From: Myxococcota bacterium
Lineage (GTDB): Bacteria > Myxococcota_A > Bradymonadia > UBA4248 > JAVFAO01
Length of the DNA: 64,000 nucleotides
Reading direction: 5' to 3'
Assembly (NCBI GenBank): GCA_034002465.1
Contig: JAVFAO010000001.1
Coordinates: 1,086 to 65,085, forward strand
The notes under the pieces were generated by a model. It ran no database searches. It saw only the letters and a program-made list of their open reading frames with translations, and was not told the origin of the DNA. Position 1 is the stretch's first letter, and each line of letters starts with the position of its first letter. Shown here in pieces: positions 8,501 to 58,495 of this stretch. A program made the translations under genes and the position numbers.

Positions 8501-9207
8501 CGCCGCGGCTTGGGTTGCGCCTTGGCTTTGGGAGGTGCTGGCAGGAAGACGGGAGAGTCCGGCAGTTTGTTGTCGATTGGGCTCTTCTCCTGTTCCCCCA
8601 AGTTTTGGTCGATTGGGCGCTTGGCCTGTTCCCCCAAGTTTTGGTCGATTGGGCTCTTCTCCTGTTCCCCCAAGTTTTGGTCGATTGGGCGCTTGGCCTG
8701 TTCCCCCAAGGTGGTGGCGGGGGTGACTGGGCTGCTTGGGGCTTCGTCAGCAGGAGAAGCCATCACGTCGGGGGGCTCAGGTGGGGATGCTAGCGCCTGC
8801 TCTGCGGTCTCCTCGAGAGCCGTCTCAACGAAAGGTGCCTCAGCGAAGCCTTCCTGTCGATCGGGCGCTTGGCCTGTTTCCCCAACTTTCTTGTTGAATG
8901 GGCGCTCGGCCTGTTGTCCCAACTTGTTGGGCTTCTCGTCTGCTTTGGGCATCGGGTGCAGCCGTGCACTTCCTGAGGCGCTCGCCAGCTTTTCATCGTC
9001 CGCCTGAAGTGCTGGGTCATCGACGATGGTGTCGAGGTCGTCGTGTTCGCTCCTGTCGGACATGGGCGCTCCGCGCTGTCGAGATGGACGATGGGGTCGG
9101 GGCTGAGCGTTGCGGGCTTTGGCGAGTATCGAGGGCTTGCCGCTGCGACGCTTCCGGATGCCGAGCTGCACCAAGAAGCCGGCGAACCATGATGCTTTGT
9201 GTACCAC
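5503..9207 (-). CDS. AsmA-like periplasmic domain fused to a GT51 peptidoglycan transglycosylase domain; cytoplasmic tail carries in-frame 36-bp repeats
   Basis: 1234 aa. C-terminal GT51 motifs EDGSFFSHQGFS, GASTISMQLVKN, EIYFNVIEFGPEIYGIREAARYYFGK and IIPNP. The central region is AsmA-like (ELPRIEKEL...GISGLSLHDVVLYD). There is one TM segment. The N-terminal tail has (LGEQ[AE]K[RS]PIDQN)n encoded by the repeat family. An alternative start is ATG at 9062. Confidence 0.8.
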   Translation of the reverse strand: MVHKASWFAGFLVQLGIRKRRSGKPSILAKARNAQPRPHRPSRQRGAPMSDRSEHDDLDTIVDDPALQADDEKLASASGSARLHPMPKADEKPNKLGQQAERPFNKKVGETGQAPDRQEGFAEAPFVETALEETAEQALASPPEPPDVMASPADEAPSSPVTPATTLGEQAKRPIDQNLGEQEKSPIDQNLGEQAKRPIDQNLGEQEKSPIDNKLPDSPVFLPAPPKAKAQPKPRRRGRLKKVLGISALLLVSLLFFAYLSAPFIGAHLLRNELPRIEKELGRRMDFGSLELHGISGLSLHDVVLYDKQGDTVFARCDTLRVDLSHSPLFGMDFQLSSILVDGLQIELRQNPDGSTNYADLQEKFEKIFEKKTPSGKPKKPSPYARYFKPLPPVELRNASISLQSPDFDANAAANTQHRFESLKQIRLQLHQPDLQSRVEFDAHAVATYVVSGQQFSQALSVTGGIKSKSDGTLRLSFDGGLVLPFAEQALGRAVRVGVVQLELPTTVLVEDLWIAGEHGFDDAVLTLDRGRALLTAIPPKKKGGVYVKETELYGLRAKLVIQDDGELAIADIIDKLSGKKTPFQALASRVGNKLESGARAGAGLPPKKVKPKGVRDYFVTQRLYLTDADLLIDDRRPNGVGLLRLDKLDFGFGYRGIRKRVEGELSFDVNGGAGGRFYTSATYSMLYNRIDIVVELEELLLRPIYRHLEANLQALSHADQSSSYADLALALLLSSVKLDDASIDSKLKFRLEFEKQRYRVGGRLALNQLEILAPSLSSMPIDALDLDLDFESTYDHKRESLQLKRFKLGLDEAELQMAFDIQPIVAQLDPSFGLKTSDESAFNLSLSIPPQPAQRLFEALPYAMRPALTGMRLGGEWGFELTAAGALNALSDMQLDTQVQLQDFNVEDWPADCDVSALNTGMSMRVRDPKALHEHRIVIPPSSHPSDDGVSFVPSHDDAQIREHYEHWTLYSDLSPWMVQMITTTEDGSFFSHQGFSTFQLKEALASNVDKGEFKRGASTISMQLVKNVFLGRQKTIARKLQEFFLTWLMESVVKVPKKRILEIYFNVIEFGPEIYGIREAARYYFGKQPADLSLREVAFLVAIIPNPRNGEGHRLRGELSPRLDKLMSWYIREMYRRKCDPERLAKLQRKYEKQGRAAPFQYCCPSPSTLEALQSEPLQFYRPAEFEPPYRPELYDERGQRLDSNAAPSCAFFEETEEAFEEPVLTELPMPE
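8566..8712 (-). repeat. 36-bp tandem repeat array, 4 units (family 1), inside the transglycosylase CDS
   Basis: Units TTGTCGATTGGGC[GT]CTT[GC][GT]CCTGTTCCCCCAAGTTT, period 36. The units alternate between two variants (ggcgcttggcc and ggctcttctcc). Confidence 0.9.
8854..8927 (-). repeat. Two degenerate family-1 units
   Basis: ctgtcgatcgggcgcttggcctgtttccccaac and ttgttgaatgggcgctcggcctgttgtcccaac; same orientation as the 8566 array. Confidence 0.7.
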
Positions 9208-13801: not shown

Positions 13802-14749
13802 ATGTTTGCTTTGCTCTGCTCGCTGAGCTCCACAACAACTTGGGGGAGCAGGCCAAGTGCCCAATCGACAAGAACTTGGGGGAGCAGGCCAAGGGCCCAA
13901 TCGACAAGAAATTGGGGGAGCAGGCCAAGTGCCCAATCGACAAGAAATTGGGGGAGCAGGCCAAGTGCCCAATCGACAAGAAGTCGAAGGCTGCCACTGC
14001 GACTGCTGAGCGCCGTCTCAGCCGTCGTGTTGTGCGCGTTGCTCGGGTCCAACGCCTGGTGCGAAGAGCTGCCTGCATCGGAGCAGCCTCCGCTACCCGT
14101 CTCAGAAGCCTTCGAGGAGCGCCTGGCACTGGGCTTCGTCGTCGGCCTCAACCGCTCCATCCTCACTGCGCCCGAGGACGCTGTGGGTGAAGCGCAGTTC
14201 ATGAGCGGCACCGCGTTCAATGGCTTTGGCGTCTCTTTTGGGCCCAGCGCGCGCTTCGGCATCCTCCCTTTCCTGGCCTTGCGCCTGGAGCTGCTCTTCT
14301 CGCTCGATCGCGCGACGGGCTACGAGAAGCTGGGTGAACAATCCCGCGAGCTCGAGCTCTCGACTTGGCGTCTACGCGTGCCCGTGCAGATCCTTGGCGG
14401 CTATGACTTCGGCTTTCTCCGACTCGACCTGGGGCTTGGCCCCGAGTTGGCGCTACCGCTCACCGTCGACGCCACACTCGAGGAGAAGAACATCCCCATC
14501 GAGGCGAGTTTTCCGCTGAGCGTGAGCGCTGGCGCTAGTTTTGGTTTGCGAATGAGCGCTGGCGTTGCCGTCGAGCTGGGAGAAGGGCTTTTTCTGCCAA
14601 GCAATGTTCATCTAAGCTGGTTTCCGGGAGTGCCCGATACTAGCCGAGAGCGCTTCGAGGGCTTCCAGTCTATGACTCAGCCTGGAAAGCTGCGGGTCGA
14701 GTACCAGTGGTGTGTTCTCTGGGATATCGGAATCAGCTACGAGCTGTGA
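13802..14749 (+). CDS. Putative outer-membrane beta-barrel-like secreted protein (start uncertain)
   Basis: ORF ends ..WDIGISYEL with alternating beta-strand-like segments. The signal-like segment LPLRLLSAVSAVVLCALLGSNAWC lies after the repeat array and has no in-frame ATG, so the true start is probably non-ATG near 13985. Confidence 0.5.
   Translation: MFALLCSLSSTTTWGSRPSAQSTRTWGSRPRAQSTRNWGSRPSAQSTRNWGSRPSAQSTRSRRLPLRLLSAVSAVVLCALLGSNAWCEELPASEQPPLPVSEAFEERLALGFVVGLNRSILTAPEDAVGEAQFMSGTAFNGFGVSFGPSARFGILPFLALRLELLFSLDRATGYEKLGEQSRELELSTWRLRVPVQILGGYDFGFLRLDLGLGPELALPLTVDATLEEKNIPIEASFPLSVSAGASFGLRMSAGVAVELGEGLFLPSNVHLSWFPGVPDTSRERFEGFQSMTQPGKLRVEYQWCVLWDIGISYEL
13840..13983 (+). repeat. 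Family-1 repeat array, 4 units
   Basis: ttgggggagcaggccaag[tg]gcccaatcgacaagaa[ac], period 36. Overlaps the 5' part of the longest ORF of the next gene. Confidence 0.9.
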
Positions 14750-17166
14750 ACCCATCGGGCAAGCAGTGGACGTCGTCCAGAAGCTGCCATTTCTGGCTTT
14801 CGAATCGCTGTACGGTCCTGCTCGCGTTGGCTGTAACTGTATTCTTATTTCCATCAATTGCGCTTGCCGATGAGGGCGTTCGCTTCATCGAAGCTGGGCA
14901 GCGTCTCGAAGAGGTCGACAGCCTGGGGGGCTGGAGCGAAGAGGATGGGGCCGTCTCGGCCCAGCCGACCCGAGAGAGCAAGAGTGGCTACTGGCTGCCC
15001 CGCAGCATCTGGATCCCTGCGCCGCGTCATGTCTCTGTGCGGCTGGATGACCATAAACACCTCGAGCTCGGGGTCTTGCTCGATGCTCGGCTCGAGGATG
15101 GTGCGCTGCTTGGCCACAATGTTCGGATCAGCGGCAAGCAGCTCCTGATCGAGCGCCTCGAACGAAACGAGGTGGTCGTTCTTGGCGAAGCCGACATCAA
15201 GGGGCTGGGCAAGAAGGGAGGCAGCGTCGAGCTGCACATCTGGGCGAGTGAGGATTGGATCGTGGCGCAGCTGCAGGGCAAGCGGGTTGCTGCGGTGCTG
15301 ACGGTTGGCGCAAAGGTGCAGGCCAGGTCGCGGCTAGGGCTGCGTCGTCAGGCTGGCGTGCGGGCGCGGGGAAGTGTGCGCGAGCTCTCGATGCGCCCCC
15401 TGTGCCCCATCGAACAGTCGAGCGCTATGCCACGTAGCTTCTTCGCCACCGTGCGAAGCAGTGATTGGAACGCCGTGATTGATGGCTTGCCTTTGATCGA
15501 GCCCATGGAGCAGCTTGCAGACCAGACGGTGCTCAAAGTGCAGCTCGAAACCCTGGGAGCGCTGTATTGCGCTGGCGTGGAGCCAGTGGAGTTGTTCACC
15601 GAGACCCCTCTCAAGTATGTGGATCCGGCGTTTCTCAGTGAACGTCGTCGAACGCCTCGGCGCAGCGCAAGTGGTTTCGTGATCGACGCTTCGTACAAAG
15701 ACAGCAGCATGGTGCGGGCCATCTTGCGGGGATACCAGCAGCGTTTTCCCGAGCTGAGCGAGCTCGTGGAGCTCGGCCGCAGCCACCAGGGGCGCCCAAT
15801 CTTGGCGCTCGCGATTGGCCGTGAGCGTTCTGGCACCAAACCCAGCATCCTGCTCAATGGCAGTCATCACGGCGACGAGCCGCTTTCGACGGAGATCGTT
15901 CTCGACGCGGTGCAGCAGCTCTTGGAGTGTTCAGAGGATCCCGAAATTTCTGCATTTCTCGATGAGTTCGTGATCTGGTGCGTGCCCTTGGTGAACCCAG
16001 ATGGCAACGCCATGCACGTCGAGCGGAGCCTGCGCCGAGGACGCAAGAACGGCAGGGACCTTGATGATGACGGTATCATTGGCTTGGACGAAGGCGTGGA
16101 TCTGAACCGGAACTATCCCTTCCGATGGGGGGAGACTGGCGAGGAGGGGAGCCGCTCCAAACCGACGCACCCGTGGTTTCGTGGGCCTTCCGCAGCTTCC
16201 GAGCCAGAGACCAAAGCCATGATGGCCCTTGCCGAACAAGAGCGCTTCGTCGCGTCGATATCCTATCACACGGGGACGGTGGCGGTGCTCGCCCCCTACA
16301 CCATCAATGAGGTTCCCAATCCCGAGCCCAACGAGGCCTGGGTGGTTGCCGAGGAGCTCATCAGTCGCCTGCCCTCTCCCGTGAAGGGGCGGGACTTTCC
16401 TTTGCGTCGACAGCTCTACTCGGTAGATGGGACCGATCAGGATTGGCATCGCTATACCCATGGCACGTTGGCGCTGCTGGTCGAGGCCTCGCCGGACAGT
16501 CCGATTGACCTAGAGAAACGCCAACGGGCCATTGTCGCCAATCGTGCTTCTTGGATGGGATTGCTGCAGCGATGGGTGGATGGACCAGGCCTCGTCGTCC
16601 AGGTGCTCAACGACCGTGGAGAGGCGGTGCAGGCGGAGCTCAGTATCGACGAGCTGCCGGTTTTCGCGGGTGAGAAGTGGCGAACACGCTGTCGAGATGG
16701 CCGCTTCTTTCGCTACCTGCCGGCGCGTGGACGCTACACCGTGCGGGCGCGAGTCGCAGGCGCAGAGGCCACCAAGGAAGTCGATGTGCGCAATTTCGAT
16801 GGTGAAGTCGTCATCATCCTGGAGGGCGCAGAGGGTGGAGGGAGGTCTTGTGAATCCCGGGTTCTGCGTCAGGATTTGATTATCGCCCAGCAATTCGTGC
16901 GGGCAAGCTGGGCTGGACTGGTGGCCAACTGGCTGGCCCCACCGCCTGCTGCTGAAGACGGCGTCGTTCGGGAGCCAGCCCCTATGGCTGTGGAGGCAGA
17001 AGCGCCGCAGCCTCTTGTCGAGCCAACGGACTCAGGCTGCGGCTGCCGTCAGACCTCGCCATTGCGTTGGAGTTGGTGGGCGTGGCTCTTGGTGGCGCTC
17101 ACGCTCAGATGGGGATCTCGAGCAGCTCGCCTTGCAGATCGACGAAGTACTCGGCGGTCCCACTGA
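14707..17166 (+). CDS. M14-family zinc carboxypeptidase with a MYXO-CTERM-like C-terminal tail
   Basis: NGSHHGDEPLS (HxxE), VPLVNPDG, DLNRNYPF and ISYHTGTVAV motifs; an N-terminal signal-like helix; C-terminal DSGCGCRQ..WLLVALTLRWGSRAARL. Confidence 0.8.
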   Translation: MVCSLGYRNQLRAVNPSGKQWTSSRSCHFWLSNRCTVLLALAVTVFLFPSIALADEGVRFIEAGQRLEEVDSLGGWSEEDGAVSAQPTRESKSGYWLPRSIWIPAPRHVSVRLDDHKHLELGVLLDARLEDGALLGHNVRISGKQLLIERLERNEVVVLGEADIKGLGKKGGSVELHIWASEDWIVAQLQGKRVAAVLTVGAKVQARSRLGLRRQAGVRARGSVRELSMRPLCPIEQSSAMPRSFFATVRSSDWNAVIDGLPLIEPMEQLADQTVLKVQLETLGALYCAGVEPVELFTETPLKYVDPAFLSERRRTPRRSASGFVIDASYKDSSMVRAILRGYQQRFPELSELVELGRSHQGRPILALAIGRERSGTKPSILLNGSHHGDEPLSTEIVLDAVQQLLECSEDPEISAFLDEFVIWCVPLVNPDGNAMHVERSLRRGRKNGRDLDDDGIIGLDEGVDLNRNYPFRWGETGEEGSRSKPTHPWFRGPSAASEPETKAMMALAEQERFVASISYHTGTVAVLAPYTINEVPNPEPNEAWVVAEELISRLPSPVKGRDFPLRRQLYSVDGTDQDWHRYTHGTLALLVEASPDSPIDLEKRQRAIVANRASWMGLLQRWVDGPGLVVQVLNDRGEAVQAELSIDELPVFAGEKWRTRCRDGRFFRYLPARGRYTVRARVAGAEATKEVDVRNFDGEVVIILEGAEGGGRSCESRVLRQDLIIAQQFVRASWAGLVANWLAPPPAAEDGVVREPAPMAVEAEAPQPLVEPTDSGCGCRQTSPLRWSWWAWLLVALTLRWGSRAARLADRRSTRRSH

Positions 17167-18316
17167 AGATCTTCTCGATGGTCTTCTCGTTGACGCCGAG
17201 CTTTTCGTAGAAGGCCTTGTCGGTTTTGCCTTCGAGGTTGAAGAGCCACACTGCCTCGAGGCCGGGGAAGTAGACCAGCTTGGGCGGTGCGAGCTCAGCG
17301 TCGGCGGGCATCTCCGCAGTGAAGATGAACTGGGCGCAGTCGATGGTGGTGGCGTCGACGTCGGGTTTGAGCTTGGGCGCAGCAGCAAGGACGGCGTCAC
17401 ACTCACCCTTGGCCTCGTACTTGACGAGCACTTTCCCAGGCGAAACCTCGGCGAGCGCCACAGCGGGTTTGCTCTTGATGAAGGTGTCGAGGGGCCCGAG
17501 GTCGGTGGGGAGGGTCATGTCGGTGGCGTCCTCGGCGAGCTTGAAGGCAAAGGCGAGCTGCCAATTGGGGGCGAGCTCGAGGTTGGCGATGCCGAGCAGG
17601 GTCTTGCAGCTTTCGTTGCCGCCCTCTTGGTTACAGGCAAACTTGGCATCGAGTAGGTTGCGGCTCCCAATTAAGGCTTTCATGGCGGGTGCAGCTTTGG
17701 CTTTGGCCATCATCGCCACATCGGGAGCGTCCTGCGCGGTGCTACCCTTTGGCACTTCCTTTCCTTCGCCGAGGAAGAACTGGTGTGCCTTGAGCTGGGA
17801 CTCTTTGAGGTATTCAGCGGCGACGAGCTTGAGCAATGGCTCGACGGCCTGACCGATGGCGCCGTTGAGTTGTACGTAGAGCTTGCCGTCGATCACGACG
17901 TTCCAGGGCAAGCGGTGCTCACAGCGGGAAGCCGTGAAGAGCTCGGCGCGACCTTCTTTGTAGGGCAGGCTGATACGCAGTGTGGGTTCGCTTTCTGCGG
18001 GTCGACAGGTCTTGACGCCATCCGAGGGGATGAGCTGGTCGATAGCCGCTGTCAGGGCGGGAATGAGGGCCTCGTCGATGGTCTCCTCGTCGTATTCGTA
18101 GACGTCGTCATAGGACTGCAGAGAAATGCGTCGAGTCTTGTGACCCTTGGGGGCTGGGTATTCAATCGAAATCTCGACACGCTTGGATTCGTCCTCACTG
18201 CGCTTTGCAGGTGCCGGCTTTGCGGCTTCCTCCTCTTTGGATGAGTCGCAGGCGCTGAGTGGGAGCAGGAGGCTCAGTATGAGGACGGCAGAAATGGGGT
18301 AGTGTTGACGGCTCAT
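17105..18316 (-). CDS. Hypothetical lipoprotein
   Basis: Start at the internal ATG gives MSRQHYPISAVLILSLLLPLSAC (lipobox). The ORF is otherwise coherent. It overlaps the carboxypeptidase 3' end convergently. Confidence 0.6.
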   Translation of the reverse strand: MSRQHYPISAVLILSLLLPLSACDSSKEEEAAKPAPAKRSEDESKRVEISIEYPAPKGHKTRRISLQSYDDVYEYDEETIDEALIPALTAAIDQLIPSDGVKTCRPAESEPTLRISLPYKEGRAELFTASRCEHRLPWNVVIDGKLYVQLNGAIGQAVEPLLKLVAAEYLKESQLKAHQFFLGEGKEVPKGSTAQDAPDVAMMAKAKAAPAMKALIGSRNLLDAKFACNQEGGNESCKTLLGIANLELAPNWQLAFAFKLAEDATDMTLPTDLGPLDTFIKSKPAVALAEVSPGKVLVKYEAKGECDAVLAAAPKLKPDVDATTIDCAQFIFTAEMPADAELAPPKLVYFPGLEAVWLFNLEGKTDKAFYEKLGVNEKTIEKIFSGTAEYFVDLQGELLEIPI

Positions 18317-18530
18317 CTTCGTTTCCTCCTGTGCTTCAGCGCTCGTCCTGGGTCTTTGTCGACGAGCGCTCACGATTCAACCATCAAGATACCTGGGTGC
18401 CCAGCAAACACAAGCGTCGAGTCCCTTGCTCGCTGGTCGTGCTCCGCTGGGGCCGAAGAGCTGGCAAACTCGGGACCGTCGCGCTGCTCGTGTTATTGTG
18501 CAGCAGCGCGCTCGTGGCTCTGAGCTTTGC

Positions 18531-19517
18531 TCAAGTTGATGCTGTGCGCTCCCGGCTTGCCGACTCAGGTGCACAGAGAGGATCCTGTCCGTCGCTATGC
18601 TCCGCGCTGAGCACGCAGCCTCCAGAGCAGTGTCCGCTGACGTGGAGGCTGCGCTTGCGACGCTGGGTTTGATGCGCAAGCAAGACCTCATTCCACGATT
18701 GTGTGCGAAGATCGCCGAGGATTTCTGCAGAGAGGGCGCAGTTTCGAACTCGACCGATGGGGTCGATGCAGAATCCTGGGTTTGGGGACATGGCGGCGCA
18801 AGTGCCGCCCGCGAGCCCGAGGGCGTGTGGCCGGAGGTCAGCAGGGATGGCGATGGCAAGCTCGATTCGCAGACCGAGAAGGGTCTGGCACCGAACGGCG
18901 ATATCGAGCGCCTCCACGACCTGGGCGCGACTTGGATGCAGTCGTCGCAGCGTTTCATCGGTCGAGCTGAGAGCGAGCCGAGAGAAGGCGACGCGCTCAA
19001 TGCCCATGCCAATGGCCAACTCGAGCACGGGCAGCCACTGCTCTGCGTTCTCGGAGGTGCAGACAAAGCTCAGTGAAATCGGCACCTTGGCGCGGAGCAG
19101 TGCCTCCATTCCGCGCAGTGTTGCAGCAAAGCTGCCCTCACCCTTCAAGCGGTCATGCCGGCCGGCATCGGCCGCGAGCAGGGTGGGTTGCAGCATCCAG
19201 ATGCCGAGTCGTGCGAGCTCGCGGGCCTCGGCGTCAGAGATGGACTCGGCGTCGCTGATCAGCGCGACGCCGAGCTGCTGTGCGCGCAGCTCCGCGATGA
19301 CGTCGAAGCAGTCGGGGTGCAGCAGCGGCTCACCACCGGAGAGCATGATCCCGGCAAACGCGCCGGCCCGCGCGGCGCCGATGGCGAGGGCGCAGAGCTC
19401 GCCGCTTGGCAGCGCAGTGTGGGGGCGCAGTGCCTTGGGGAGGGCGCGGTAGTAACAGTAGCGGCACTGCCGCAGGCTGCGGCTGTGCAGCTCGAGGATG
19501 AGGGCGCGCGCGCTCAC
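18531..19517 (-). CDS. Radical SAM/SPASM-like protein with a non-canonical SxxxCxxC cluster motif
   Basis: N-terminus ..[18 protein letters not shown] aligns to the canonical ..TSACNLRCKYCYY motif but has Ser in place of the first Cys. Also has the GGEPLL SAM motif and a C-terminal Cys-rich SPASM-like segment ([21 protein letters not shown]...HCSGGC). The GTG start overlaps the stop of the upstream gene (GTGA). Confidence 0.7.
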
Positions 19518-20584
19518 GCGTGGCGCTCGAGGTAGCGGGAGCGCAGGGCCTGACGTGCGGCTTGCAGGCGCTGATCAAGGTTCCAAGAGCAGCCTTGCAC
19601 GAAGTCGAGTACGGAGATGCGAGCATGGCGCAAATCTTCGAGGCGCGCAGCATCGGCACGCCGCTGGTTGAGGTCTTGTAGCACGGCGCTTTGTCGGCAG
19701 GCGTCTCCGATGCCATCGCCGTCTCGGTCCCACTGCTTGGGGTTGGGAACCTCAGGGCAGTTGTCGCAGACATCGCCAATGCCATCGTCGTCCTGGTCGG
19801 CTTGGTCGGGGTTGGCGTGGCGTGGGCAGTTATCAGGACCAGTGAGGGATGGACAGGGACTATTCTGAGGATAGCCACCGATGATGCCGTCGGCGTCAGC
19901 GTCATAGCTGCACCAGGGTCCGCACGGCGACATGCAGGTCATCTCACTGGCGCAGGCGCTGCCCATGTCGCCGAAGAAATCACAGGCCACCGCCTGCTCT
20001 GGGTTCGGGGCGAAGGGGCAGTTGTCGGTAGCGTCAGCGATGCCGTCGCCATCTCGGTCGTCGTTGTCATCGCAGAGGTCGCCGAAGCCATCGGCGTCTT
20101 GGTCGGTCTGCTCGGGGTTTGCGATGTAGGGACAGTTGTCGAAGACGTCAGGGACGGCGTCGGCGTCGCTGTCGAGTCGGCAGCGGTCATCACAGCAGTC
20201 GAGGGAGTTAGGGTCGAAGCTACAGGCATCTCCGATGCCATCACCATCTTGATCCTGCTGGTCTGGGTTGGCTGCGAATGGGCAGTTGTCGCTGCGATTG
20301 GGGATGCCGTCAGCGTCGTGGTCGGGGTTGCCGGTGGTGTCAAGGCTGGTGTCGACTTCGACGCTATCGGCATCGGCGGGCAGCTCCGCATTGGGCTCGA
20401 GCTCGGTGACCCGGACATGGTCTCGACAACCGACGAGGCTCGCTCCCAGGGCCAGCAGCAGGCCAATGAAGGGGAGCAGCGCCGAGAGCTGGGCTTGGCA
20501 TCCGAGAAGCGAGACGCTGAGTGCGAAGCAGATGCTGCACAGGAGCAGAAGGGAGCGCCACTGAGCTTGGCTGTGTCGCAGCAT
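19514..20584 (-). CDS. Thrombospondin type 3 repeat (TSP3) lipoprotein
   Basis: About 8 calcium-binding TSP3 repeats (DNCPxxxNPDQxDxDxDGxGDxCD), two lipobox-like segments (SLLGC, SLVGC) and a Cys-rich insert. Confidence 0.8.
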
Positions 20585-21922: not shown

Positions 21923-23437
21923 TCAGTTGAGGATGAAGTAGGCTGCGACAGTGCCAGCGCCGCCGAGCAGCAGGATGATCAGGATGATCCAGAGCAGGGT
22001 GTTGCTAGGGGGGGCGACGGGCTCACCGAGGTTGTAGCCGGGGTCGGGGTAGGCTGGCCCTTGGGGACCGTTTTGCCCGTAGGCGCGGCGCATCTGGTCG
22101 ACGTTGATGGGCACGGTCGACTGCTCTGCGAGCTCTCGTTGTGGACCCTGCTGTTGATATCCCTGCTGTTGGTACCCCTGCTGTTGTTGGTACCCCTGCT
22201 GTTGTGGGTACCCCTGTTGTTGTGGGTACCCCTGCTGTGGGTAGGCTTGCTGAGCCTGTTGCTGTTGGTACCCTTGTTGAGGGTACCCTTGCTGTTGCGG
22301 CTGCCCCTGCTGCTGTGCGGGAGGAGCGTTTCTCGGGCCTGGTTGAGGCGGAGGAGGGGGGGCGCCGCCGACGGACTGGAGGGGCAGGGTTTTGGGCTTC
22401 TTGGCGGGGTTGGCGCGGCTGACGGCAAGAAACTTGTTGAGGTCGATGGCGCTGGTTTTTTCTTCGTAGGCGGTGGAGACGCCTTGTCCAGTGGCGAGAT
22501 AGTTGCGGAAGTCCATCCCTAGCTCTGGGGCGTTGCGCTGTCTTTGCTTGGGGTCGCAGCGCAGAGCTTTGGCGATGATGGTCCAGAGGGGGTAGGGGAT
22601 GGTGGGGGGGCCAACGAGATCCTCGTCGAGCTGTTGGGTCCTCATCTTGAGGTAGTCGAGGAGGCTACGTGCGTATTCCGCTTGTGATGAAGTGTTTGGC
22701 TGGAAGGGGAACAGTTTGGCACCGGTGAACATCTCGAAGGCGATCAGGCCGAGGCTGTAGACGTCTGTCCAAGTGTCTGTTTGCGCAAGACTTTCGTCTT
22801 CGATTGAGGGGTCGGAGAACTGCTCTGGGGCCATATATTCGGGAGTTCCCGCAAGTACGCCCTTGTCCAGGTTCTCTGCGAAGTCGCGTCCCGAGACGAT
22901 GTCCTCGGATTCGAAGAGCTTGAGCAGGCCTTGGGCGTCCTTGACGAGGCCGAGGTCCATCAGCTTCACCTGCCAGTTGCGGTTGAGCATGATGTTGTCG
23001 GGTTTGACGTCGCGGTGCACGAGACCAAGCTCGTGCAGACCACCGAAGGCGTCGCAGAGCTGGACCATGAACTGACAGCCCTCAGTGGCTCCCCAGACGG
23101 GACGATGCTTGAGGGTGTCCTTGAGGGTGGCCCCGTCTACGTATTCCATTGCCAGGAAGGGGAACCCTTCCTGTGTGTAGCCATCTCCGTAATACTGAAT
23201 ACAGAACTGGTTCGCCGGAAGCTGCTTGAGAACCTTGATCTCGCGGCTGAACCGTTTGCGAGCATCGTCTGTGGAGTTGTACTGAACCTTGACGGCGACG
23301 GGATATTCGTTGGCCATCGTGGCGTAGTACACGTAAGCGAAGGCACCCGCCCCAACGAAGTGTCGGATCGTATAGCCCCCGGGCAGCGTCTTGTTCAGGA
23401 AGTAGCTACGATCGGGTTTCATTCGCTTGCTGACCAC
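21923..23437 (-). CDS. Ser/Thr protein kinase with a Pro/Gln-rich linker and C-terminal TM anchor
   Basis: Kinase motifs VAVK, HRDVKPDNIML, DLGL and APE. A long PQ/QGY low-complexity region. C-terminal TM helix LLWIILIILLLGGAGTVAAYFIL. Confidence 0.9.
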   Translation of the reverse strand: MVSKRMKPDRSYFLNKTLPGGYTIRHFVGAGAFAYVYYATMANEYPVAVKVQYNSTDDARKRFSREIKVLKQLPANQFCIQYYGDGYTQEGFPFLAMEYVDGATLKDTLKHRPVWGATEGCQFMVQLCDAFGGLHELGLVHRDVKPDNIMLNRNWQVKLMDLGLVKDAQGLLKLFESEDIVSGRDFAENLDKGVLAGTPEYMAPEQFSDPSIEDESLAQTDTWTDVYSLGLIAFEMFTGAKLFPFQPNTSSQAEYARSLLDYLKMRTQQLDEDLVGPPTIPYPLWTIIAKALRCDPKQRQRNAPELGMDFRNYLATGQGVSTAYEEKTSAIDLNKFLAVSRANPAKKPKTLPLQSVGGAPPPPPQPGPRNAPPAQQQGQPQQQGYPQQGYQQQQAQQAYPQQGYPQQQGYPQQQGYQQQQGYQQQGYQQQGPQRELAEQSTVPINVDQMRRAYGQNGPQGPAYPDPGYNLGEPVAPPSNTLLWIILIILLLGGAGTVAAYFILN

Positions 23438-24186: not shown

Positions 24187-24675
24187 TTGGTGCAACACAA
24201 GACTCGGTCCGAGCGATGTGCTCGGCCGCTGGAGGCTGCTGTGGTCTTCTGGACGAGTCTGCTTCTCGCTGCTTGCGCTTTCTCACAGCTCGACGATGAC
24301 GCTCAGCTTCAGTGGTCGGTTCACCTCCACAGCCCTGAGCTGGGGCTGGCCGATAGTGACCTGAACTTGCTCTTCGATGGGAAGAGCTGTTTCGAGGCGC
24401 AAGTTGATGGCGCGAGTTGCAAGCCGCTCCCTGCCCAAGCCCGAGCTGGGTGGCGTCGTTCGACCTGCTCAGTGCTGCCCTCGCCTCTCTCGGCTTCGCT
24501 CGACGTGTGTCAGGAGGTGGTCGCCGTGCACTGTGAGTTTGGCGCCGGAAGTCTGCGCTATGAGGCTTGGAGAGAGGGTTCGAGCATCAGGCTCTTGCAG
24601 CGTGAGCGCGACCCCGACGGGCAGCACGGCGAGCGGGTCCAGATGCGTGTGCTAGCACCCCTGGAGCATCCATGA
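24187..24675 (+). CDS. Hypothetical small protein, translationally coupled to the downstream radical SAM gene
   Basis: 162-aa ORF with a hydrophobic N-terminal segment (VVFWTSLLLAACAF). Its stop overlaps the ATG of the next gene (ATGA). Confidence 0.4.
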   Translation: MVQHKTRSERCARPLEAAVVFWTSLLLAACAFSQLDDDAQLQWSVHLHSPELGLADSDLNLLFDGKSCFEAQVDGASCKPLPAQARAGWRRSTCSVLPSPLSASLDVCQEVVAVHCEFGAGSLRYEAWREGSSIRLLQRERDPDGQHGERVQMRVLAPLEHP

Positions 24676-26144
24676 GCAAGCGCCGTGCTCCGCGGGAGCT
24701 TCCCAGTCGGGCCCGCTTGCTCGCCGCAGAACGCGGGGCTCCGATCACCCGAGGGGCCCATGCCGTCGCGCTGCTCGCCCCCGTTCCCTATGCCACTGCC
24801 ATGAGCTCGCTCGGTTTCCAGACCGTGCATCGGCTGCTCGCCGAGCTGCCTGAGCTCTGTATCGAGCGCTTCTTCCTTCCTGAGACAGGGGAGAGCCTGC
24901 TCAGCTTCGAGAGCGCGCGCAGCGTCCATGAGTTCGCGCTGATCGCTGTTTCGCTCGCTTGGGAGAATGAGCTCATCGGCCTGATGAGTTGTTTACAAGC
25001 TGCCGGTATCGCGCCGTGGGCGGCGGAGCGCGCTCCCGACAGCCCACCCATCCTCTTGGGAGGCCCCATCACCTATGCCAATCCGTTGGCGTTTGCTCCG
25101 TTCTGCGATGTCATGCTCATGGGGGAGGCCGAGGGCTTGCTCGAGCGGATGCTGCACGCCCAGCTCGAGGCGCCAGACAAGGCGACTTGGCTCGCCCGCA
25201 TCGGCGACTGGGATGGTGTCTATGTGCCGGCACTTCATGGCGAATGTCTGCGTCCATTGAACTGTGCTCCAGACACTGCCCTGCCTGCACGCTCGCTGAT
25301 CTACTCGCCCTACGCCGAGTTCGCCGACATGCATCTGGTGGAGCTGGCCCGCGGTTGTTCGCGACGATGTGCTTTCTGCGTGATGCGCCGACAGACCGGG
25401 CGCAGCATGCGCGTGCTCAGCGCCGAGAGAGTGCTCGCTGCGGCAGACGTCGAGCTGGAGCGTGTTGGGCTGGTTGGTGCTGCGGTCAGCGATCATCCCC
25501 AGCTTCTCGAGGTGCTCGAAGCTCTGCTCGCCCGAGGGCAGCACTGCAGTCTTTCGAGTGTGCGGGCTGACCGGGTCAGCGAGCCGTTGGTGGCGCTGCT
25601 GCGTGCAGGTGGTGCGCGACGTTTGACCGTGGGGGTGGATGGGGCGAGTCAGCGTTTGCGTGATGCGCTGTTCAAGGGGATACGCCTCTCCGACATCGAG
25701 CGTTGCATCGACATTGCGCGCTCACACGCGATGGCGCTGAAGTTCTATTTGATGATTGGGGTTCCCGGCGAACTCGATGAAGACCTGAGCGACTTCGCCA
25801 CCTGGCTCGCGAGCGCCGTCCGCGGTACGCGAAGCAGCCTGGCGGTGTCACCCTTCGTGCCCAAAGCGCATACGCCTTTGGAGAGAGAGGGGTTTGCGCC
25901 GGCTGCTGAGCTCGAGCGCCGTTTGGGCATTCTGCGCAAGCTCTTGGGAGGCAAAGTGGAGCTGCGAGCCACCAGCGTTCGATGGGCACGGGTCGAAGCT
26001 GCCATCGCTGGCGCTCCCTGGTCTCTGGCCGAGCGGGCTTGGCGAGCACACTGCGCTGGGGGGAGCTTTGCCGCCTGGCGCGATGAGGTGCTCACTTGGA
26101 GCGAGCAGCAGGATCCCGCTTCACGTCCTTGGCTGGAGAGCTGA
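24672..26144 (+). CDS. B12-binding-domain radical SAM protein (TIGR03960-like)
   Basis: CxxxCxxC motif ELARGCSRRCAFCVMRR, an N-terminal B12-binding-like region, and a C-terminal alpha/beta region typical of this rSAM subfamily. Confidence 0.8.
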   Translation: MSKRRAPRELPSRARLLAAERGAPITRGAHAVALLAPVPYATAMSSLGFQTVHRLLAELPELCIERFFLPETGESLLSFESARSVHEFALIAVSLAWENELIGLMSCLQAAGIAPWAAERAPDSPPILLGGPITYANPLAFAPFCDVMLMGEAEGLLERMLHAQLEAPDKATWLARIGDWDGVYVPALHGECLRPLNCAPDTALPARSLIYSPYAEFADMHLVELARGCSRRCAFCVMRRQTGRSMRVLSAERVLAAADVELERVGLVGAAVSDHPQLLEVLEALLARGQHCSLSSVRADRVSEPLVALLRAGGARRLTVGVDGASQRLRDALFKGIRLSDIERCIDIARSHAMALKFYLMIGVPGELDEDLSDFATWLASAVRGTRSSLAVSPFVPKAHTPLEREGFAPAAELERRLGILRKLLGGKVELRATSVRWARVEAAIAGAPWSLAERAWRAHCAGGSFAAWRDEVLTWSEQQDPASRPWLES

Positions 26145-36439: not shown

Positions 36440-38356
36440 TCAGGGGAGCTCGTCACAGCCTTCGGGGATGGCGAGCTCTCGGCGGAAGCTGTGCTGGTTG
36501 AGGGTGGATTTCTTTTCGATTGGGCGCTTGTCCTGTTCCCCCAGGTTGTTTGCACGCAGCCAGGTCCAGGTTCCGGATTCGGTGCAGGCATCTGCTTCGA
36601 GGCCGTAAGTTTCGACGCTGATACGGCGGCTCGCGACGAGTTGGAGCGCGTCGAGGCCACGGGGGCGAACCTTGAGCTCGACGTGGATGGAGACCTTGGT
36701 GGGGTCGGTGAAGTAGCGATCGCAGGCTTCGAAGTTGTGTTCGAAGATGGGCTGAGGGCCGGTCTCGCTGAGGACGATACGATTCCAGGAGAGGCGGACC
36801 TTGTGCTTCGACTTGCCGGTGGCGAGCAGGTCGGCTTCGAAGTCTTGGCTGAGGGCCCGAATGTCGTTTGCGTTTGGGAATTCGAGCTCCTTGTCGAGCT
36901 TGAAGCTTTGTTCTGCTCCGCTCGAGTCGGTGCGGCTGAGCAGCAGGGGCTTGTGTTCTGCGGTGCTGTAGTACCAGCGGCGGATGACGCGTCGGTCGCG
37001 TTGTTCGCTCTCGAGACGGCCCATGACGTTACAGGGTTTCTCTTTGTATATTGCGTTCTTGGCGTACGCGGGTTGGCGATCGCGCGTCAGGCTCGCCTGG
37101 GTCTCTTCGACCACATAGAGCTCGCCCTTGGGGCTTGGCCAGTGTTGGACTGCAACGCGTTGCTCACTTTGTTCGCGTTGCTCTGGCTTTCCGCTTTGGC
37201 TCCAAAGCTTGGTTTCACTTTGACGTTCGAAGAAGCCGTGCGCGTTGAGCTCGAGCAGGTGCTGACGAGATTCGCCGCTCAGCGCTTGGTCGCCATCGGG
37301 TTCTAGCTGTTTGCCGTAGTCGAGCTGGATGTGGAGTCGTGGAGCGGTGGTCTCGGGGAACAGGCGAAGCTGCCCGGTGCGCAGGTCATCATCGTTGTTT
37401 TCGAATCGAAATCGCGCGATGGGGGCGAGCTCTGGCCAGGGCTCGTCGCTCTGTGGGTCGAGCTTGGTCTTGGGCGTGGGCAGGCCGAGGGGAGCGTCGA
37501 GCAGCTGGCGTTGGGCCAGTTGGGGATTGTTGGAGAGGGCGTTGAGCGGGTCGATGCGCAGGCCTTGCGTCGAGAGGGTGAGCAGCTCGCTGCCTTCGAG
37601 CTCGGGATAGAGGTCCCACTCGATGAACAGGGGCGAGGTGGCGTTGATGGTTTGGACCAGCTTGGGCTCGGCGGCGGGTGGGAGCGGTGAGAAGGGAGGC
37701 AGCTCAACGAAGCATGCTTGGGTTTCAGAGAAAGCGTAGAGGATGGGTTGTGTAGAGAGAACCAGAAGCACTGGAGGATCGCTGGGGAAAAGCCAACTGT
37801 CCCCCTCGGATGGGGCCACGCAGGGGGAGCCCTCTGGCAGCGGTGGCACAGGCATGAAGGGTCTTGACTCTGGCAAGGCGAGCCAACGTTCTTGTCGATT
37901 GGGCGCTTGGCCTGTTCCCCCAAGTTCTTGTTGATTGGGCACTTGGCCTGTTCCCCCAAGTTCTTGTTGATTGGGCACTTGGCCTGTTCCCCCAAGTTCT
38001 TGTTGATTGGGCACTTGGCCTGTTCCCCCAATGACTTCGCCGAGCTCACCGGGCTGCACGAAGCGTTCGGCGAGGGCTTGGTTGCAGGCGGCCCAGGCAG
38101 GGCTGGCGGGTGGATAGATGAGGGTGAACGCAGGGGCTGGTGGTGCTTCGGCGAGGTCTTCGGTGGCTGGCTCAGGAGGTGGAGCTTGGACGGTGTCTGT
38201 GAGGGGCTGCTCGGCAGTGGTATCTGTTTGGGGAGCGTTCTGCTCTGGGGGCGGTGTTGGGGCTTGTTCCTTGGGTGTGCATCCGAGGACGGTGGCAATG
38301 CCAAGGGTGACGGCGAGGCTCACGGCAACGCGGCGGGGGTGAGGGGAGCTAGACAT
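36440..38356 (-). CDS. Hypothetical lipoprotein carrying in-frame family-1 repeat insertions
   Basis: Start MSSSPHPRRVAVSLAVTLGIATVLGC (lipobox). Contains (GTGQVPNQQELG)x4 from the array at 37891-38030 and NLGEQDKRPIEKK from the unit at 36514. The longest ORF extends to 38692. Confidence 0.6.
   Translation of the reverse strand: MSSSPHPRRVAVSLAVTLGIATVLGCTPKEQAPTPPPEQNAPQTDTTAEQPLTDTVQAPPPEPATEDLAEAPPAPAFTLIYPPASPAWAACNQALAERFVQPGELGEVIGGTGQVPNQQELGGTGQVPNQQELGGTGQVPNQQELGGTGQAPNRQERWLALPESRPFMPVPPLPEGSPCVAPSEGDSWLFPSDPPVLLVLSTQPILYAFSETQACFVELPPFSPLPPAAEPKLVQTINATSPLFIEWDLYPELEGSELLTLSTQGLRIDPLNALSNNPQLAQRQLLDAPLGLPTPKTKLDPQSDEPWPELAPIARFRFENNDDDLRTGQLRLFPETTAPRLHIQLDYGKQLEPDGDQALSGESRQHLLELNAHGFFERQSETKLWSQSGKPEQREQSEQRVAVQHWPSPKGELYVVEETQASLTRDRQPAYAKNAIYKEKPCNVMGRLESEQRDRRVIRRWYYSTAEHKPLLLSRTDSSGAEQSFKLDKELEFPNANDIRALSQDFEADLLATGKSKHKVRLSWNRIVLSETGPQPIFEHNFEACDRYFTDPTKVSIHVELKVRPRGLDALQLVASRRISVETYGLEADACTESGTWTWLRANNLGEQDKRPIEKKSTLNQHSFRRELAIPEGCDELP
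36514..36549 (-). repeat. Family-1 repeat, single unit
   Basis: ttttcgattgggcgcttgtcctgttcccccaggttg. Confidence 0.85.
37891..38030 (-). repeat. Family-1 repeat array, 4 units
   Basis: ttgt[ct]gattgggc[ga]cttggcctgttcccccaagttc, period 36; the last unit is truncated. Confidence 0.9.
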
Positions 38357-58151: not shown

Positions 58152-58408
58152 GCAAAACTCCCAAGCTGGTTCCTGGTGTACTATTTCAGAGTCGGTGAGC
58201 GAGCTGGTATCTCTGGACAGAGCGCGTGCTCAGCGCGCTGCAGCAGCAACACCGCTCGCGAGATGCCCTCTCCTTGACTCCATATCATTGCCCCCCATTG
58301 GATGCAATCAGCTGCACGCGCCAACGCCAGACGGGCTTTTCTCTGTCGGGCTCATGACGCTCAGCAGCATTCTTGCTATGCTCAGAGGCGGGAGTGCTGG
58401 ATTGCAAT

Positions 58409-58479
58409 CGAAAGCGAGCGAAGGGTGCTCCATTCTCGCGAGTCATCGAGCGAGGTCGGTACCCGAGAGCGAGCGAATG
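58409..58479 (+). promoter_or_regulatory. Conserved 5' leader element, copy B (minimal form)
   Basis: CGAAAGCGAGCGAAGGGtgctccATTCTCGCGAgtcaTCGAGCGAGGTCGGTACCCGAGAGCGAGCGAATG, 17 bp upstream of the CRTAC1-like gene start. Confidence 0.6.
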
Positions 58480-58495
58480 CAAAGGTGAGGTGGGC

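Follow-up and report, generated by a model that had tools for sequence, protein, structure and literature searches.

A conserved pair of a TSP3-repeat protein gene and a PqqE-like radical SAM/SPASM gene, with a degenerate enzyme copy in one Myxococcota genome

In the stretch of 64,000 nucleotides from a Myxococcota bacterium that was analysed here (the window), the gene for a thrombospondin type 3 (TSP3) repeat protein directly precedes the gene for a PqqE-like radical SAM/SPASM-family protein. These two genes are a real functional pair: a TSP3 ortholog lies directly upstream of an ortholog of the enzyme, with order and strand preserved, in all informative loci of the relatives (n = 24), and the adjacency is far beyond chance. 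The occurrence of the two-gene unit in every relative examined suggests that the enzyme modifies the TSP3 protein, a candidate substrate on account of the adjacency. The reading that we prefer, with a confidence somewhat above even, is that the pair is a self-contained cassette conserved in Myxococcota-like bacteria, in which the enzyme would act on the TSP3 protein, and that the enzyme of the window is an impaired member of its family. The features on which the analysis is based are listed in Table 1.

Table 1. Features of the gene pair in the window (positions are those of the window; residues are those of the respective protein).
Feature	Position	Strand	Remarks
TSP3-repeat protein gene, candidate substrate or partner	19514..20584	-	356-aa ORF, ATG start
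N-terminal module, residues 1-53	20426..20584	-	conserved in 19/19 orthologs
Lipobox-like LLGC, residues 26-29	20498..20509	-
Lipobox-like LVGC, residues 50-53	20426..20437	-
Cys-rich insert 1 (13 residues), residues 130-142	20159..20197	-	consensus CC...C.LDSD.D
Cys-rich insert 2 (29 residues), residues 209-237	19874..19960	-	consensus GD.CD....C..PCG..C.YDADGDG..GG
C-terminal helical tail, residues 294-356	19517..19705	-	ends in a conserved helix right before the enzyme start codon
GTGA overlap, TSP3 stop/enzyme start	19514..19517	-	sequence; tcac on the + strand
PqqE-like radical SAM/SPASM-family protein gene, degenerate copy	18531..19517	-	328-aa ORF, GTG start
Degenerate cluster motif S14-LRQ-C18-RY-C21 (CxxxCxxC in relatives)	19455..19478	-	alignment
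GGEPLL, SAM-binding glycine-rich motif, retained	19320..19337	-	DNA checked
SPASM-region remnant, residues 240-301	18615..18800	-	C240, C260, C297, C301 kept, C250 gained

The arrangement of the two ORFs and the overlap of the TSP3 stop codon with the enzyme start codon, both pointed out by the first-pass annotation of this DNA, were confirmed on the minus strand, where the GTG start (19517-19515) overlaps the TGA stop (19516-19514). The GTG at 19517 is the sole possible start of the enzyme, as no other start codon occurs upstream before an in-frame stop, and the conserved first strand of the enzyme (E9) starts 8 residues downstream of it. In the relatives, the genes overlap by 14, 8 or 4 nt, or are separated by gaps of 3-100 nt. 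A promoter and terminator scan yielded no candidates between both genes and none above chance.

The pairing was observed for all enzyme homologs looked up (6 of 6), in all lookups begun from TSP3 orthologs (3 of 3), and in all family loci on metagenome contigs (15 of 15), the latter count taking only loci having upstream DNA. The genomic contexts of the 24 informative loci are otherwise unrelated: among ORFs of 25 aa or longer that lie up to 2 kb from the pair, none is common to more than two loci, and none of the neighbour genes in the window recurs in the family loci. The pairwise identities of the TSP3 protein and of the enzyme co-vary (r = 0.76). Four-base overlaps are common among unrelated neighbouring genes, and the adjacency together with the 4-nt overlap might have been accidental in a gene-dense, GC-rich genome; the neighbourhood data, with the same order and strand retained in unrelated contexts throughout, refute this, and we regard an accident as extremely improbable. 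The conservation of the neighbourhood, which had been set beforehand as a test of the pairing, was thus seen in every relative checked. The pairing had also been proposed not to be a described system, and indeed no curated family or paper covers both genes: Pfam and NCBIfam hold no model specific to either the TSP3 gene or the enzyme gene, and in the literature we found no paper connecting the TSP3 protein family with a radical SAM gene.

We defined the cassette by the presence, in the TSP3 protein, of the tandem lipobox, the CC...C.LDSD and C..PCG..C.YDADGDG..GG inserts and the C-terminal helix, and by an enzyme gene that directly follows on the same strand and encodes the VQPTLLAA motif. The window pair has every one of these features, the enzyme motif being LQPTLLAA. 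A scan of the contigs with the full enzyme alignment picked the generic motif [TS]GGEPLLRxD, and as all radical SAM genes that it retrieved were unrelated (identity 32% or lower), it was uninformative on the neighbourhood; a second enzyme alignment lacking this motif (A2) worked on the metagenome contigs. Proteins of about 731-742 aa are encoded beside the pair in several loci, as would be expected for a third conserved gene; only those of L081 and L087, two close relatives, are related to each other. The enzyme homolog P0046 (30% identity) was left outside the cassette family because of its different genomic context. Finally, PADLOC reported only a generic viperin-like radical SAM similarity, and therefore the pair is not a known defence system.

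The TSP3 protein matches the Pfam TSP_3 model (PF02412) in four stretches (110 bits against the cutoff of 25, E = 4e-32), its calcium-binding motif D-x-D-x-D-G-x-x-D-x-x-D-x-C-P was located by a regular-expression scan, and the protein is identical to 'thrombospondin type 3 repeat-containing protein [Myxococcota bacterium]'. The homology search was swamped by generic repeat proteins: true orthologs made up 9 of the best 120 matches, and only these 9 have the tandem lipobox, the Cys-rich inserts and the C-terminal helix, which hence are family-specific. The window protein retains almost every residue conserved in the family.

Both the duplicated lipobox and the Cys-rich insert noticed earlier in this protein were found, and both proved to be conserved family features. 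The N-terminal module consists of a positively charged start, a hydrophobic segment, LLGC, a second hydrophobic segment, and LVGC. The two lipobox-like sites, each after its hydrophobic segment, are kept in all 19 orthologs; the criterion for a bacterial lipoprotein was a signal peptide with the lipobox [LVI][ASTVI][GAS]C, lipidated and cleaved at the Cys. The spacing between the two lipobox cysteines is 21-27, the region between them is nearly uncharged (one K/R in one of the 19 orthologs), and the 60 residues that follow carry a net charge of -9 to -18 in the orthologs. The AlphaFold2 model (mean pLDDT 59, pTM 0.26) is confident for the N-terminal helices and the C-terminal tail only; here it predicts helices 3-28 and 33-51 at the N-terminus, and 294-319, 325-331 and 336-355, with pLDDT above 90, in the tail. 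The last helix, AL..LR.RF...G[VI]L, of which 11 residues immediately precede the enzyme start, is present in most orthologs, L085, L089 and L097 stopping short of it.

Both Cys-rich inserts sit just before a D-x-D-G-D calcium-binding loop. In insert 1, C130, C131, C135, L137, D138, S139, D140 and D142 are invariant in alignment A3 and are kept at 90% or more in the 19 orthologs. Insert 2, the first 19 residues of which (209-227; 19904-19960) are the insert noticed in the first pass, has C221, C225, Y227, D228, A229, D230, D232, G233, G236 and G237 invariant in A3. Neither the sulfatase formylglycine motif C-x-P-x-R nor the PqqA motif E-x3-Y is conserved in the inserts. The mature part of the protein has 18 conserved cysteines, an even number. 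Many relatives have CGPEC; the TSP3 protein of the window has CDDRC.

The enzyme of the window has about 45 homologs at 33-42% identity. It scores 52.2 bits with Pfam Radical_SAM (PF04055; cutoff 29.5), the intact relatives scoring 94-99 bits. Among solved structures, the family is best matched by PqqE (PDB 6c8v, E = 4.7e-34), the alignment being full-length and including the SPASM cysteines. With the PqqE model TIGR02109, the window enzyme scores 54.9 bits and the relative P0003, 127.4 bits, at a cutoff of 381; no pqq genes occur in any of the locus gene tables. Residues G61, G62, E63, P64 and L65 of the GGEPLL motif do not vary in alignment A1. The first conserved core strand is preceded there by only 8-25 residues, and since these leave no room for an RRE domain, the family lacks one. 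Signs of a RiPP-type maturase were looked for, and neither an N-terminal RRE nor a conserved small ORF within 2 kb was found.

The window enzyme departs from this family in its cysteines. Position 14 is Cys in 20 of 20 aligned homologs and in all complete metagenome relatives, and about 40 relatives whose N-terminus is complete have Cys there without exception; in the window, the codon is AGC instead of TGC, a change of a single base. Among the best 150 representatives, the window enzyme is the sole full-length protein without CxxxCxxC, the motif whose three cysteines ligate the [4Fe-4S] cluster of radical SAM proteins. Besides C14S, four other family-invariant cysteines, those of SRFC, PLC and CxxC, are lost, and overall 16 of the 69 family-invariant columns are changed, five of them being Cys. 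As the criterion for SPASM, we used the seven-cysteine motif C-x9-15-G-x4-C ... C-x2-C-x5-C-x3-C ... C, which holds two auxiliary clusters. The relatives have the complete motif, with all of them keeping the cysteines; in the window, the first half is present (C240 ... G-RVRN-C260), and of the second half only C297-x3-C301 is left, the CxxC being missing along with about 10 aa that were lost in frame. Pfam SPASM does not match the window enzyme even at E <= 10. A CxxC hidden by a compensated frameshift was looked for in the other reading frames, and none is present.

The losses are accompanied by a general divergence. The mean identity of the window enzyme to the family is 36.5%, vs 55.2% among the relatives, which makes it the most divergent member, while the corresponding values for its TSP3 partner are 50.5% and 58.1%; relative to the partner, the enzyme has a residual of -12.6 points, about 2.4 standard deviations. 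Because of the cysteine losses and this divergence beyond that of the partner, normal radical chemistry is probably lost, and the window enzyme is probably catalytically impaired. The first-pass annotation had treated an rSAM pseudogene in the relatives as counter-evidence; the reverse was seen, the relatives being intact and the window copy degenerate, a degeneracy that had escaped the first pass. Its proposal that a SPASM enzyme modifies the product of the neighbouring gene agrees well with the relatives; for the window copy the proposal is doubtful, since C14 and four other invariant cysteines are gone.

There are other ways to interpret the degenerate copy. If codon 14 reflects a consensus error of the MAG or a strain variant, or if another residue serves as the cluster ligand, and if the SPASM region has been remodelled into a twitch-like one with a single auxiliary cluster, the window enzyme would still be an active radical SAM protein. 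Ser14 is one transversion from Cys and was read from a single MAG contig, the one carrying MDX9719109.1; GGEPLL and 27 columns invariant across A1 are retained, the frame and coding composition are normal, and the partner is well conserved. C240, C260 and C301 are kept, and the gained Cys250, situated between C240 and C260, could replace the lost PLC cysteine, which would mean remodelling rather than decay and would speak against the impairment that we propose. This is set against the presence of Cys at position 14 in all the relatives with complete N-termini, the loss of CxxC with about 10 aa, which cannot be a base-calling error, the changes at 16 of 69 invariant positions, and a divergence that is excessive relative to the partner. 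Thus, we hold continued activity to be possible, but rather unlikely.

Vice versa, the gene could be in decay, as a pseudogene left over from the cassette, with the TSP3 protein now working unmodified. The loss of five invariant cysteines, the longest branch in the family and the halved Pfam score are what such decay would leave. Nevertheless, its 328 codons contain no frameshift or stop, although its extra divergence amounts to about 19 identity points, the sole larger indel is in frame, GC by codon position (0.71/0.52/0.75) is typical of genes here, and the overlapping start is preserved; neutral decay to such a degree should have broken the frame. We therefore find a pseudogene unlikely. 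The intact frame and the normal coding composition suggest that the protein is kept as a partner without catalysis or that function was lost very recently, and speak against a gene long dead.

As a third alternative, the genes may be functionally linked while the substrate is a small molecule or another protein, the TSP3 protein being a membrane anchor, a scaffold or a calcium-dependent regulator. The nearest named families do include cofactor enzymes (PqqE, AhbD, NirJ) besides peptide maturases, and the enzyme has no RRE domain. However, nothing else is conserved near the pair, so no gene for another substrate or pathway travels along with it; tight coupling and one-to-one co-inheritance are what is typically seen for an enzyme and its substrate in this subfamily, and the family-specific Cys-rich inserts would have no alternative explanation. 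Accordingly, we give this possibility little credence.

In the preferred reading, with the TSP3 protein as the substrate, the first gene would encode a membrane-anchored, Asp- and Cys-rich protein built of TSP3 repeats. In the relatives, the two proteins would be produced at about 1:1, and the TSP3 protein would be modified, still unfolded, at the cytoplasmic face of the membrane. As to the chemistry, crosslinks within the molecule, located in the Cys-rich inserts or close to them, would be the likeliest; one candidate, by analogy with QhpD and PapB, is a Cys-to-Asp thioether. In the window, with the first cluster cysteine and four more lost, normal radical chemistry is improbable. Two further observations weigh against this reading. 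The near-full conservation of the window TSP3 protein is unexpected if its maturase is dead and the modification is essential, and the 18 cysteines could all pair as ordinary disulfides after export, leaving none for thioethers.

Radical SAM/SPASM enzymes are mainly maturases of short peptides (RiPPs) or of cofactors, and few of them, such as anSME and QhpD, act on whole proteins. If the preferred reading is true, the substrates of protein scale would gain a class, namely large calcium-binding repeat proteins that are anchored in the membrane and always accompanied by a dedicated enzyme; the cassette, having two genes only, would also be easy to use in experiments aimed at new crosslink chemistry. 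Separate questions, on the insertion or export route and on which cysteine is lipidated, follow from the conserved tandem lipobox, and the degenerate window copy is a natural experiment on whether the modification is essential and whether the enzyme has a non-catalytic role. A more specific scenario, which we put forward as speculative and improbable as a whole, is that the tandem-lipobox helical hairpin holds the TSP3 protein (350-440 aa) at the cytoplasmic membrane face, where the co-translated SPASM enzyme would staple it by non-disulfide crosslinks, e.g., Cys-Asp thioethers, beside the calcium loops; the stapled protein would then act at the membrane or be released to the cell surface, and the window maturase would be the first natural dead partner in such a new substrate class.

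Parts of the pair resemble several known systems. The TSP3 calcium-binding repeats are shared with MtsC and other bacterial TSP3 surface proteins, but the window protein reaches 133.5 bits with the MtsC model (NF047638; cutoff 350) through the repeats only, and instead of a MYXO-CTERM tail it has a soluble helical tail at the C-terminus. The pseudo-SAM/SPASM family TIGR04347, among the matches of the window protein, is a precedent for the persistence of homologs without the canonical cluster motif; the window enzyme is not its member, as it scores 53 bits against the cutoff of 525, and in its own family, otherwise intact, only one lineage is degenerate.

The maturases of ranthipeptides and sactipeptides (PapB, CteB, SkfB) are likewise SPASM or twitch enzymes that form thioether crosslinks, Cys-to-Asp/Glu ones in the case of PapB (PMC9413430), and SkfB is the second-best solved relative of the enzyme family. 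They differ in having short leader-containing substrates and an N-terminal RRE, where our family has no RRE and no conserved small ORF. PqqE, the best solved match and also the best NCBIfam match of the intact relative P0003, acts on a gene-encoded substrate located alongside; however, pqqA, B, C and D are absent from the vicinity here, the scores are far under the cutoff, and what PqqD delivers to PqqE as the substrate is a peptide of about 25 aa, in contrast to a partner of 350-440 aa. The third-best solved relative, anSME, belongs to the SPASM enzymes, has no RRE and modifies an exported protein in its full length, prior to export, but the match is limited to the radical SAM core, and its C/S-x-P-x-R target is not conserved in the TSP3 family.

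QhpD introduces Cys-to-Asp/Glu thioethers, in a single turnover, into a protein whose gene lies in the same operon (PMC7876137). Several thioethers are formed inside one acid-rich, periplasm-destined protein, QhpC, with which the enzyme makes a stoichiometric complex (PMC7876137). QhpC differs in being about 100 aa long with a 28-residue leader and in travelling with qhpA, B, E, F and G, none of which is present here, and the QhpD family is not among the best NCBIfam matches of the window enzyme or P0003. The single turnover and the stoichiometric complex of QhpD fit the translational coupling and the Cys/Asp-rich candidate substrate of the present pair.

The coding-strand reading of the sequence bears out the overlap claimed in the first-pass annotation between a gene for a protein with thrombospondin type 3 (TSP3) repeats and a radical SAM gene: positions 19514-19517 are tcac on the plus strand, that is, GTGA on the coding strand, hence the TGA stop and the GTG start share four bases. 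The GTG at 19517 is the sole usable start of the enzyme gene: going upstream, the frame reaches a stop before any other start codon, and the conserved first strand opens as early as residue 9. Pfam TSP_3 matches the upstream protein in four stretches (110 bits, cutoff 25), and Radical_SAM matches the enzyme (52.2 bits, cutoff 29.5). The TSP3 protein does contain the features ascribed to it, namely the Cys-rich insert at residues 209-227 and a lipobox-like site at each of 26-29 (LLGC) and 50-53 (LVGC). Proteins identical to this pair have been deposited from a Myxococcota MAG.

Gene pair and other features of the window
Feature	Position	Strand	Type
TSP3-repeat protein gene, 356 aa, ATG start	19514-20584	minus	ORF
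Radical SAM protein gene, 328 aa, GTG start	18531-19517	minus	ORF
36-bp unit (ACAAGAAATTGGGGGAGCAGGCCAAGTGCCCAATCG), 4.2 head-to-tail copies	13832-13982		
Related copies of the 36-bp unit, one single and one triple	8610-8640 and 37896-37998	minus, both	
M14 zinc carboxypeptidase, 819 aa; C-terminal GCGC, hydrophobic stretch and Arg-rich tail	14707-17166	plus	
422 aa, downstream of the enzyme gene; internal lipoprotein-like start (MSRQHYPISAVLILSLLLPLSAC)	17105-18373	minus	ORF
Ser/Thr protein kinase; long Gln/Tyr/Gly-rich repeat region (QQGYPQQ type), C-terminal hydrophobic segment	21923-23437	minus	
Tandem DNA repeats of the kinase repeat region	22145-22295		
Second radical SAM gene, Radical_SAM_N2 and Radical_SAM	24672-26144	plus	
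2919 aa	45175-53934	plus	ORF
776 aa, seven D-x-D-x-D-G-x-x-D calcium-loop-like motifs	58373-60703	plus	ORF

A protein search yielded about 45 enzyme homologs (identity 33-42%). In all six that were looked up on their contigs (P0003, P0034, P0012, P0021, P0023 and P0008), the enzyme gene is immediately preceded, on the same strand, by a gene of 348-442 aa; the two genes either overlap, by 14 or 4 nt, or stand 3-100 nt apart. P0046, a more distant homolog, was rejected as a family member (30% identity, different gene context). Scanning metagenomes with two patterns specific to the family, P[VI]QPTLLAA and C[GR]GGCR[EV]SA, gave 19 family loci; a TSP3 protein of the same kind is encoded upstream in all 15 for which upstream DNA was available. 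Three TSP3 orthologs from the protein search (P0099, P0165 and P0100) are each followed by a family enzyme with an intact CxxxCxxC motif. In total, the pair is kept in 24 of 24 informative loci, which answers in the affirmative the question of neighbourhood conservation raised by the first-pass annotation. None of the neighbour genes in the window recurs in the family loci, within 2 kb of the pair none of the ORFs of 25 aa or longer is common to more than two loci, and the pairwise identities of the TSP3 protein and the enzyme co-vary (r = 0.76). Thus, the pair forms a self-contained two-gene cassette.

Among the relatives' loci, very large proteins (1262-1339 aa; MopE copper-binding and TSP3 repeats) adjoin the cassette in L081 (1-4690), L083 (1-4366), L084 (611-4399) and L087 (1-4813), and a Peptidase_M3 gene lies beside it in L081, L082 and L087; neither occurs in the window or in every locus. 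The 422-aa ORF matches nothing in Pfam or NCBIfam, and relatives do not keep it beside the cassette. The C-terminus of the M14 carboxypeptidase has a weak similarity (E 0.0087) to the MYXO-CTERM end of NF045523, which fits a Myxococcota origin. The 36-bp unit has eight matches in the window, with none expected by chance; it does not form a CRISPR array, as spacers are absent, and may represent a dispersed intergenic repeat family.

Four features are common to the 19 TSP3 orthologs and absent from ordinary TSP3 proteins. The N-terminal tandem lipobox module consists of a positively charged start and two successive hydrophobic segments, each ending in L-x-G-C. Between the two cysteines, which are spaced 21-27 residues apart, the sequence is nearly uncharged (a single K/R, in one ortholog of 19), and the 60 residues after the module carry a net charge of -9 to -18. 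As the module is common to all 19 orthologs, the duplicated lipobox reported initially is a conserved family feature, not an accident of the window gene. The consensus is CC...C.LDSD.D for insert 1 and GD.CD....C..PCG..C.YDADGDG..GG for insert 2, and in both Cys-rich inserts the cysteines immediately precede a calcium-loop motif. The C-terminal tail is helical, its last helix (AL..LR.RF...G[VI]L) stopping just before the enzyme start. The AlphaFold2 model is confident only for this tail (pLDDT >90) and for the N-terminal helices, predicted at 3-28 and 33-51. Cassette-type features occur in 9 of the 120 best TSP3 matches in a large protein database. The 776-aa ORF of the window lacks the TSP3 Cys-Pro signature and is probably an FG-GAP/VCBS-type repeat protein unrelated to the cassette.

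The profile of the enzyme family can be aligned with PqqE (6c8v, E 4.7e-34) over the full length, the SPASM cysteines included; the next-best solved relatives are SkfB and anSME. NCBIfam gives sub-threshold matches only (for the intact relative P0003, 127 bits to PqqE, whose cutoff is 381, and 116 to GeoRSP, whose cutoff is 400), with no model specific to either cassette gene. As the first core strand starts after no more than 8-25 residues, there is no space for a leader-binding domain (RRE). Searched against 1.84 billion representatives, the profile finds 3,514 proteins at E<=1e-30, and since the cassette motif QPT[LIV]LA is found in only 5 of the best 150, the family is a small clade inside a broad PqqE-like group. 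The second radical SAM gene, 4 kb away (best NCBIfam match TIGR03960, 140 bits, cutoff 462; CxxxCxxC intact, GCSRRCAFC), is unrelated to the cassette enzyme and not a paralog of it.

Where every relative has CxxxCxxC, the window enzyme has S14-x3-C18-x2-C21, and among the best 150 representatives it is the sole full-length protein without the motif, nine others being N-terminal fragments. Also missing are the cysteines of SRFC and PLC and the CxxC of CxxCx5Cx3C, and about 10 residues have been lost in frame; no hidden CxxC was found in the other reading frames of the gene. The radical SAM assignment holds at the level of the Pfam match, but the window enzyme does not show the defining cysteine motifs of radical SAM and SPASM proteins. 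Of 69 positions that do not vary among 14 relatives, 16 are changed in it, five of them Cys; its Pfam score is half that of the relatives, and its divergence exceeds that of the partner: mean identity to relatives is 36.5% (55.2% among relatives) for the enzyme and 50.5% (58.1%) for the TSP3 protein, placing the enzyme 12.6 points (~2.4 sd) under the enzyme/partner identity trend. Several points speak against simple decay: all 328 codons read through without a break, GC by codon position is as usual for genes in the window, GGEPLL is retained, and a new Cys250 has appeared between C240 and C260. The Ser14 codon, observed on a single contig, is one base from Cys. Judging from the sequence, the window enzyme is degenerate and probably unable to perform the family chemistry. 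Its partner shows near-complete conservation of the family-conserved residues, hence the modification may be dispensable, or the enzyme may have kept a non-catalytic role, or it may still work in an altered way. In locus L091 (2050-2250) the enzyme gene is frameshifted between the CNRNCHYC motif and GGEPL, either by an assembly error or as a second case of inactivation.

We observe a conserved, often overlapping pair of a SPASM-type enzyme without RRE and a partner that combines family-specific Cys-rich inserts with a membrane module of two helices, and infer that the TSP3 partner is the substrate. Tight coupling would lead to near 1:1 production of the two proteins, a ratio that would serve a protein-modifying enzyme of low turnover. 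According to one report, QhpD is single-turnover, stays in a stoichiometric complex with its substrate and forms three Cys-to-Asp/Glu thioethers in a protein of the same operon (PMC7876137); PapB, too, joins Cys to Asp/Glu (PMC9413430). Crosslinks of the thioether type near the calcium loops could, by analogy, tentatively be regarded as the most plausible chemistry. With an even number of membrane helices, the repeats would face the cytoplasm, within reach of a radical SAM enzyme; the calcium-binding repeats and the 18 conserved cysteines, on the other hand, point to a protein that ends up outside the cytoplasm.

The literature search found no paper linking thrombospondin-type repeats to radical SAM enzymes in bacteria, and PADLOC matched the cassette to no known system; with no specific NCBIfam model either, the pairing is, as initially suggested, undescribed. 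The first-pass interpretation therefore stands as to a conserved, undescribed pair, but it overlooked the degeneracy of the window enzyme. The cassette family is small, but its tandem lipobox and the dead-looking maturase of the window are genuinely odd. Compared with known systems, the cassette enzyme is not a PqqE, the cassette falls outside the RRE-dependent RiPP maturases, its TSP3 protein is neither an anSME target nor an MtsC, and the window copy departs from radical SAM and SPASM proteins in both signatures. By analogy, the cassette would work in the manner of known systems in which a SPASM maturase is encoded beside its substrate.
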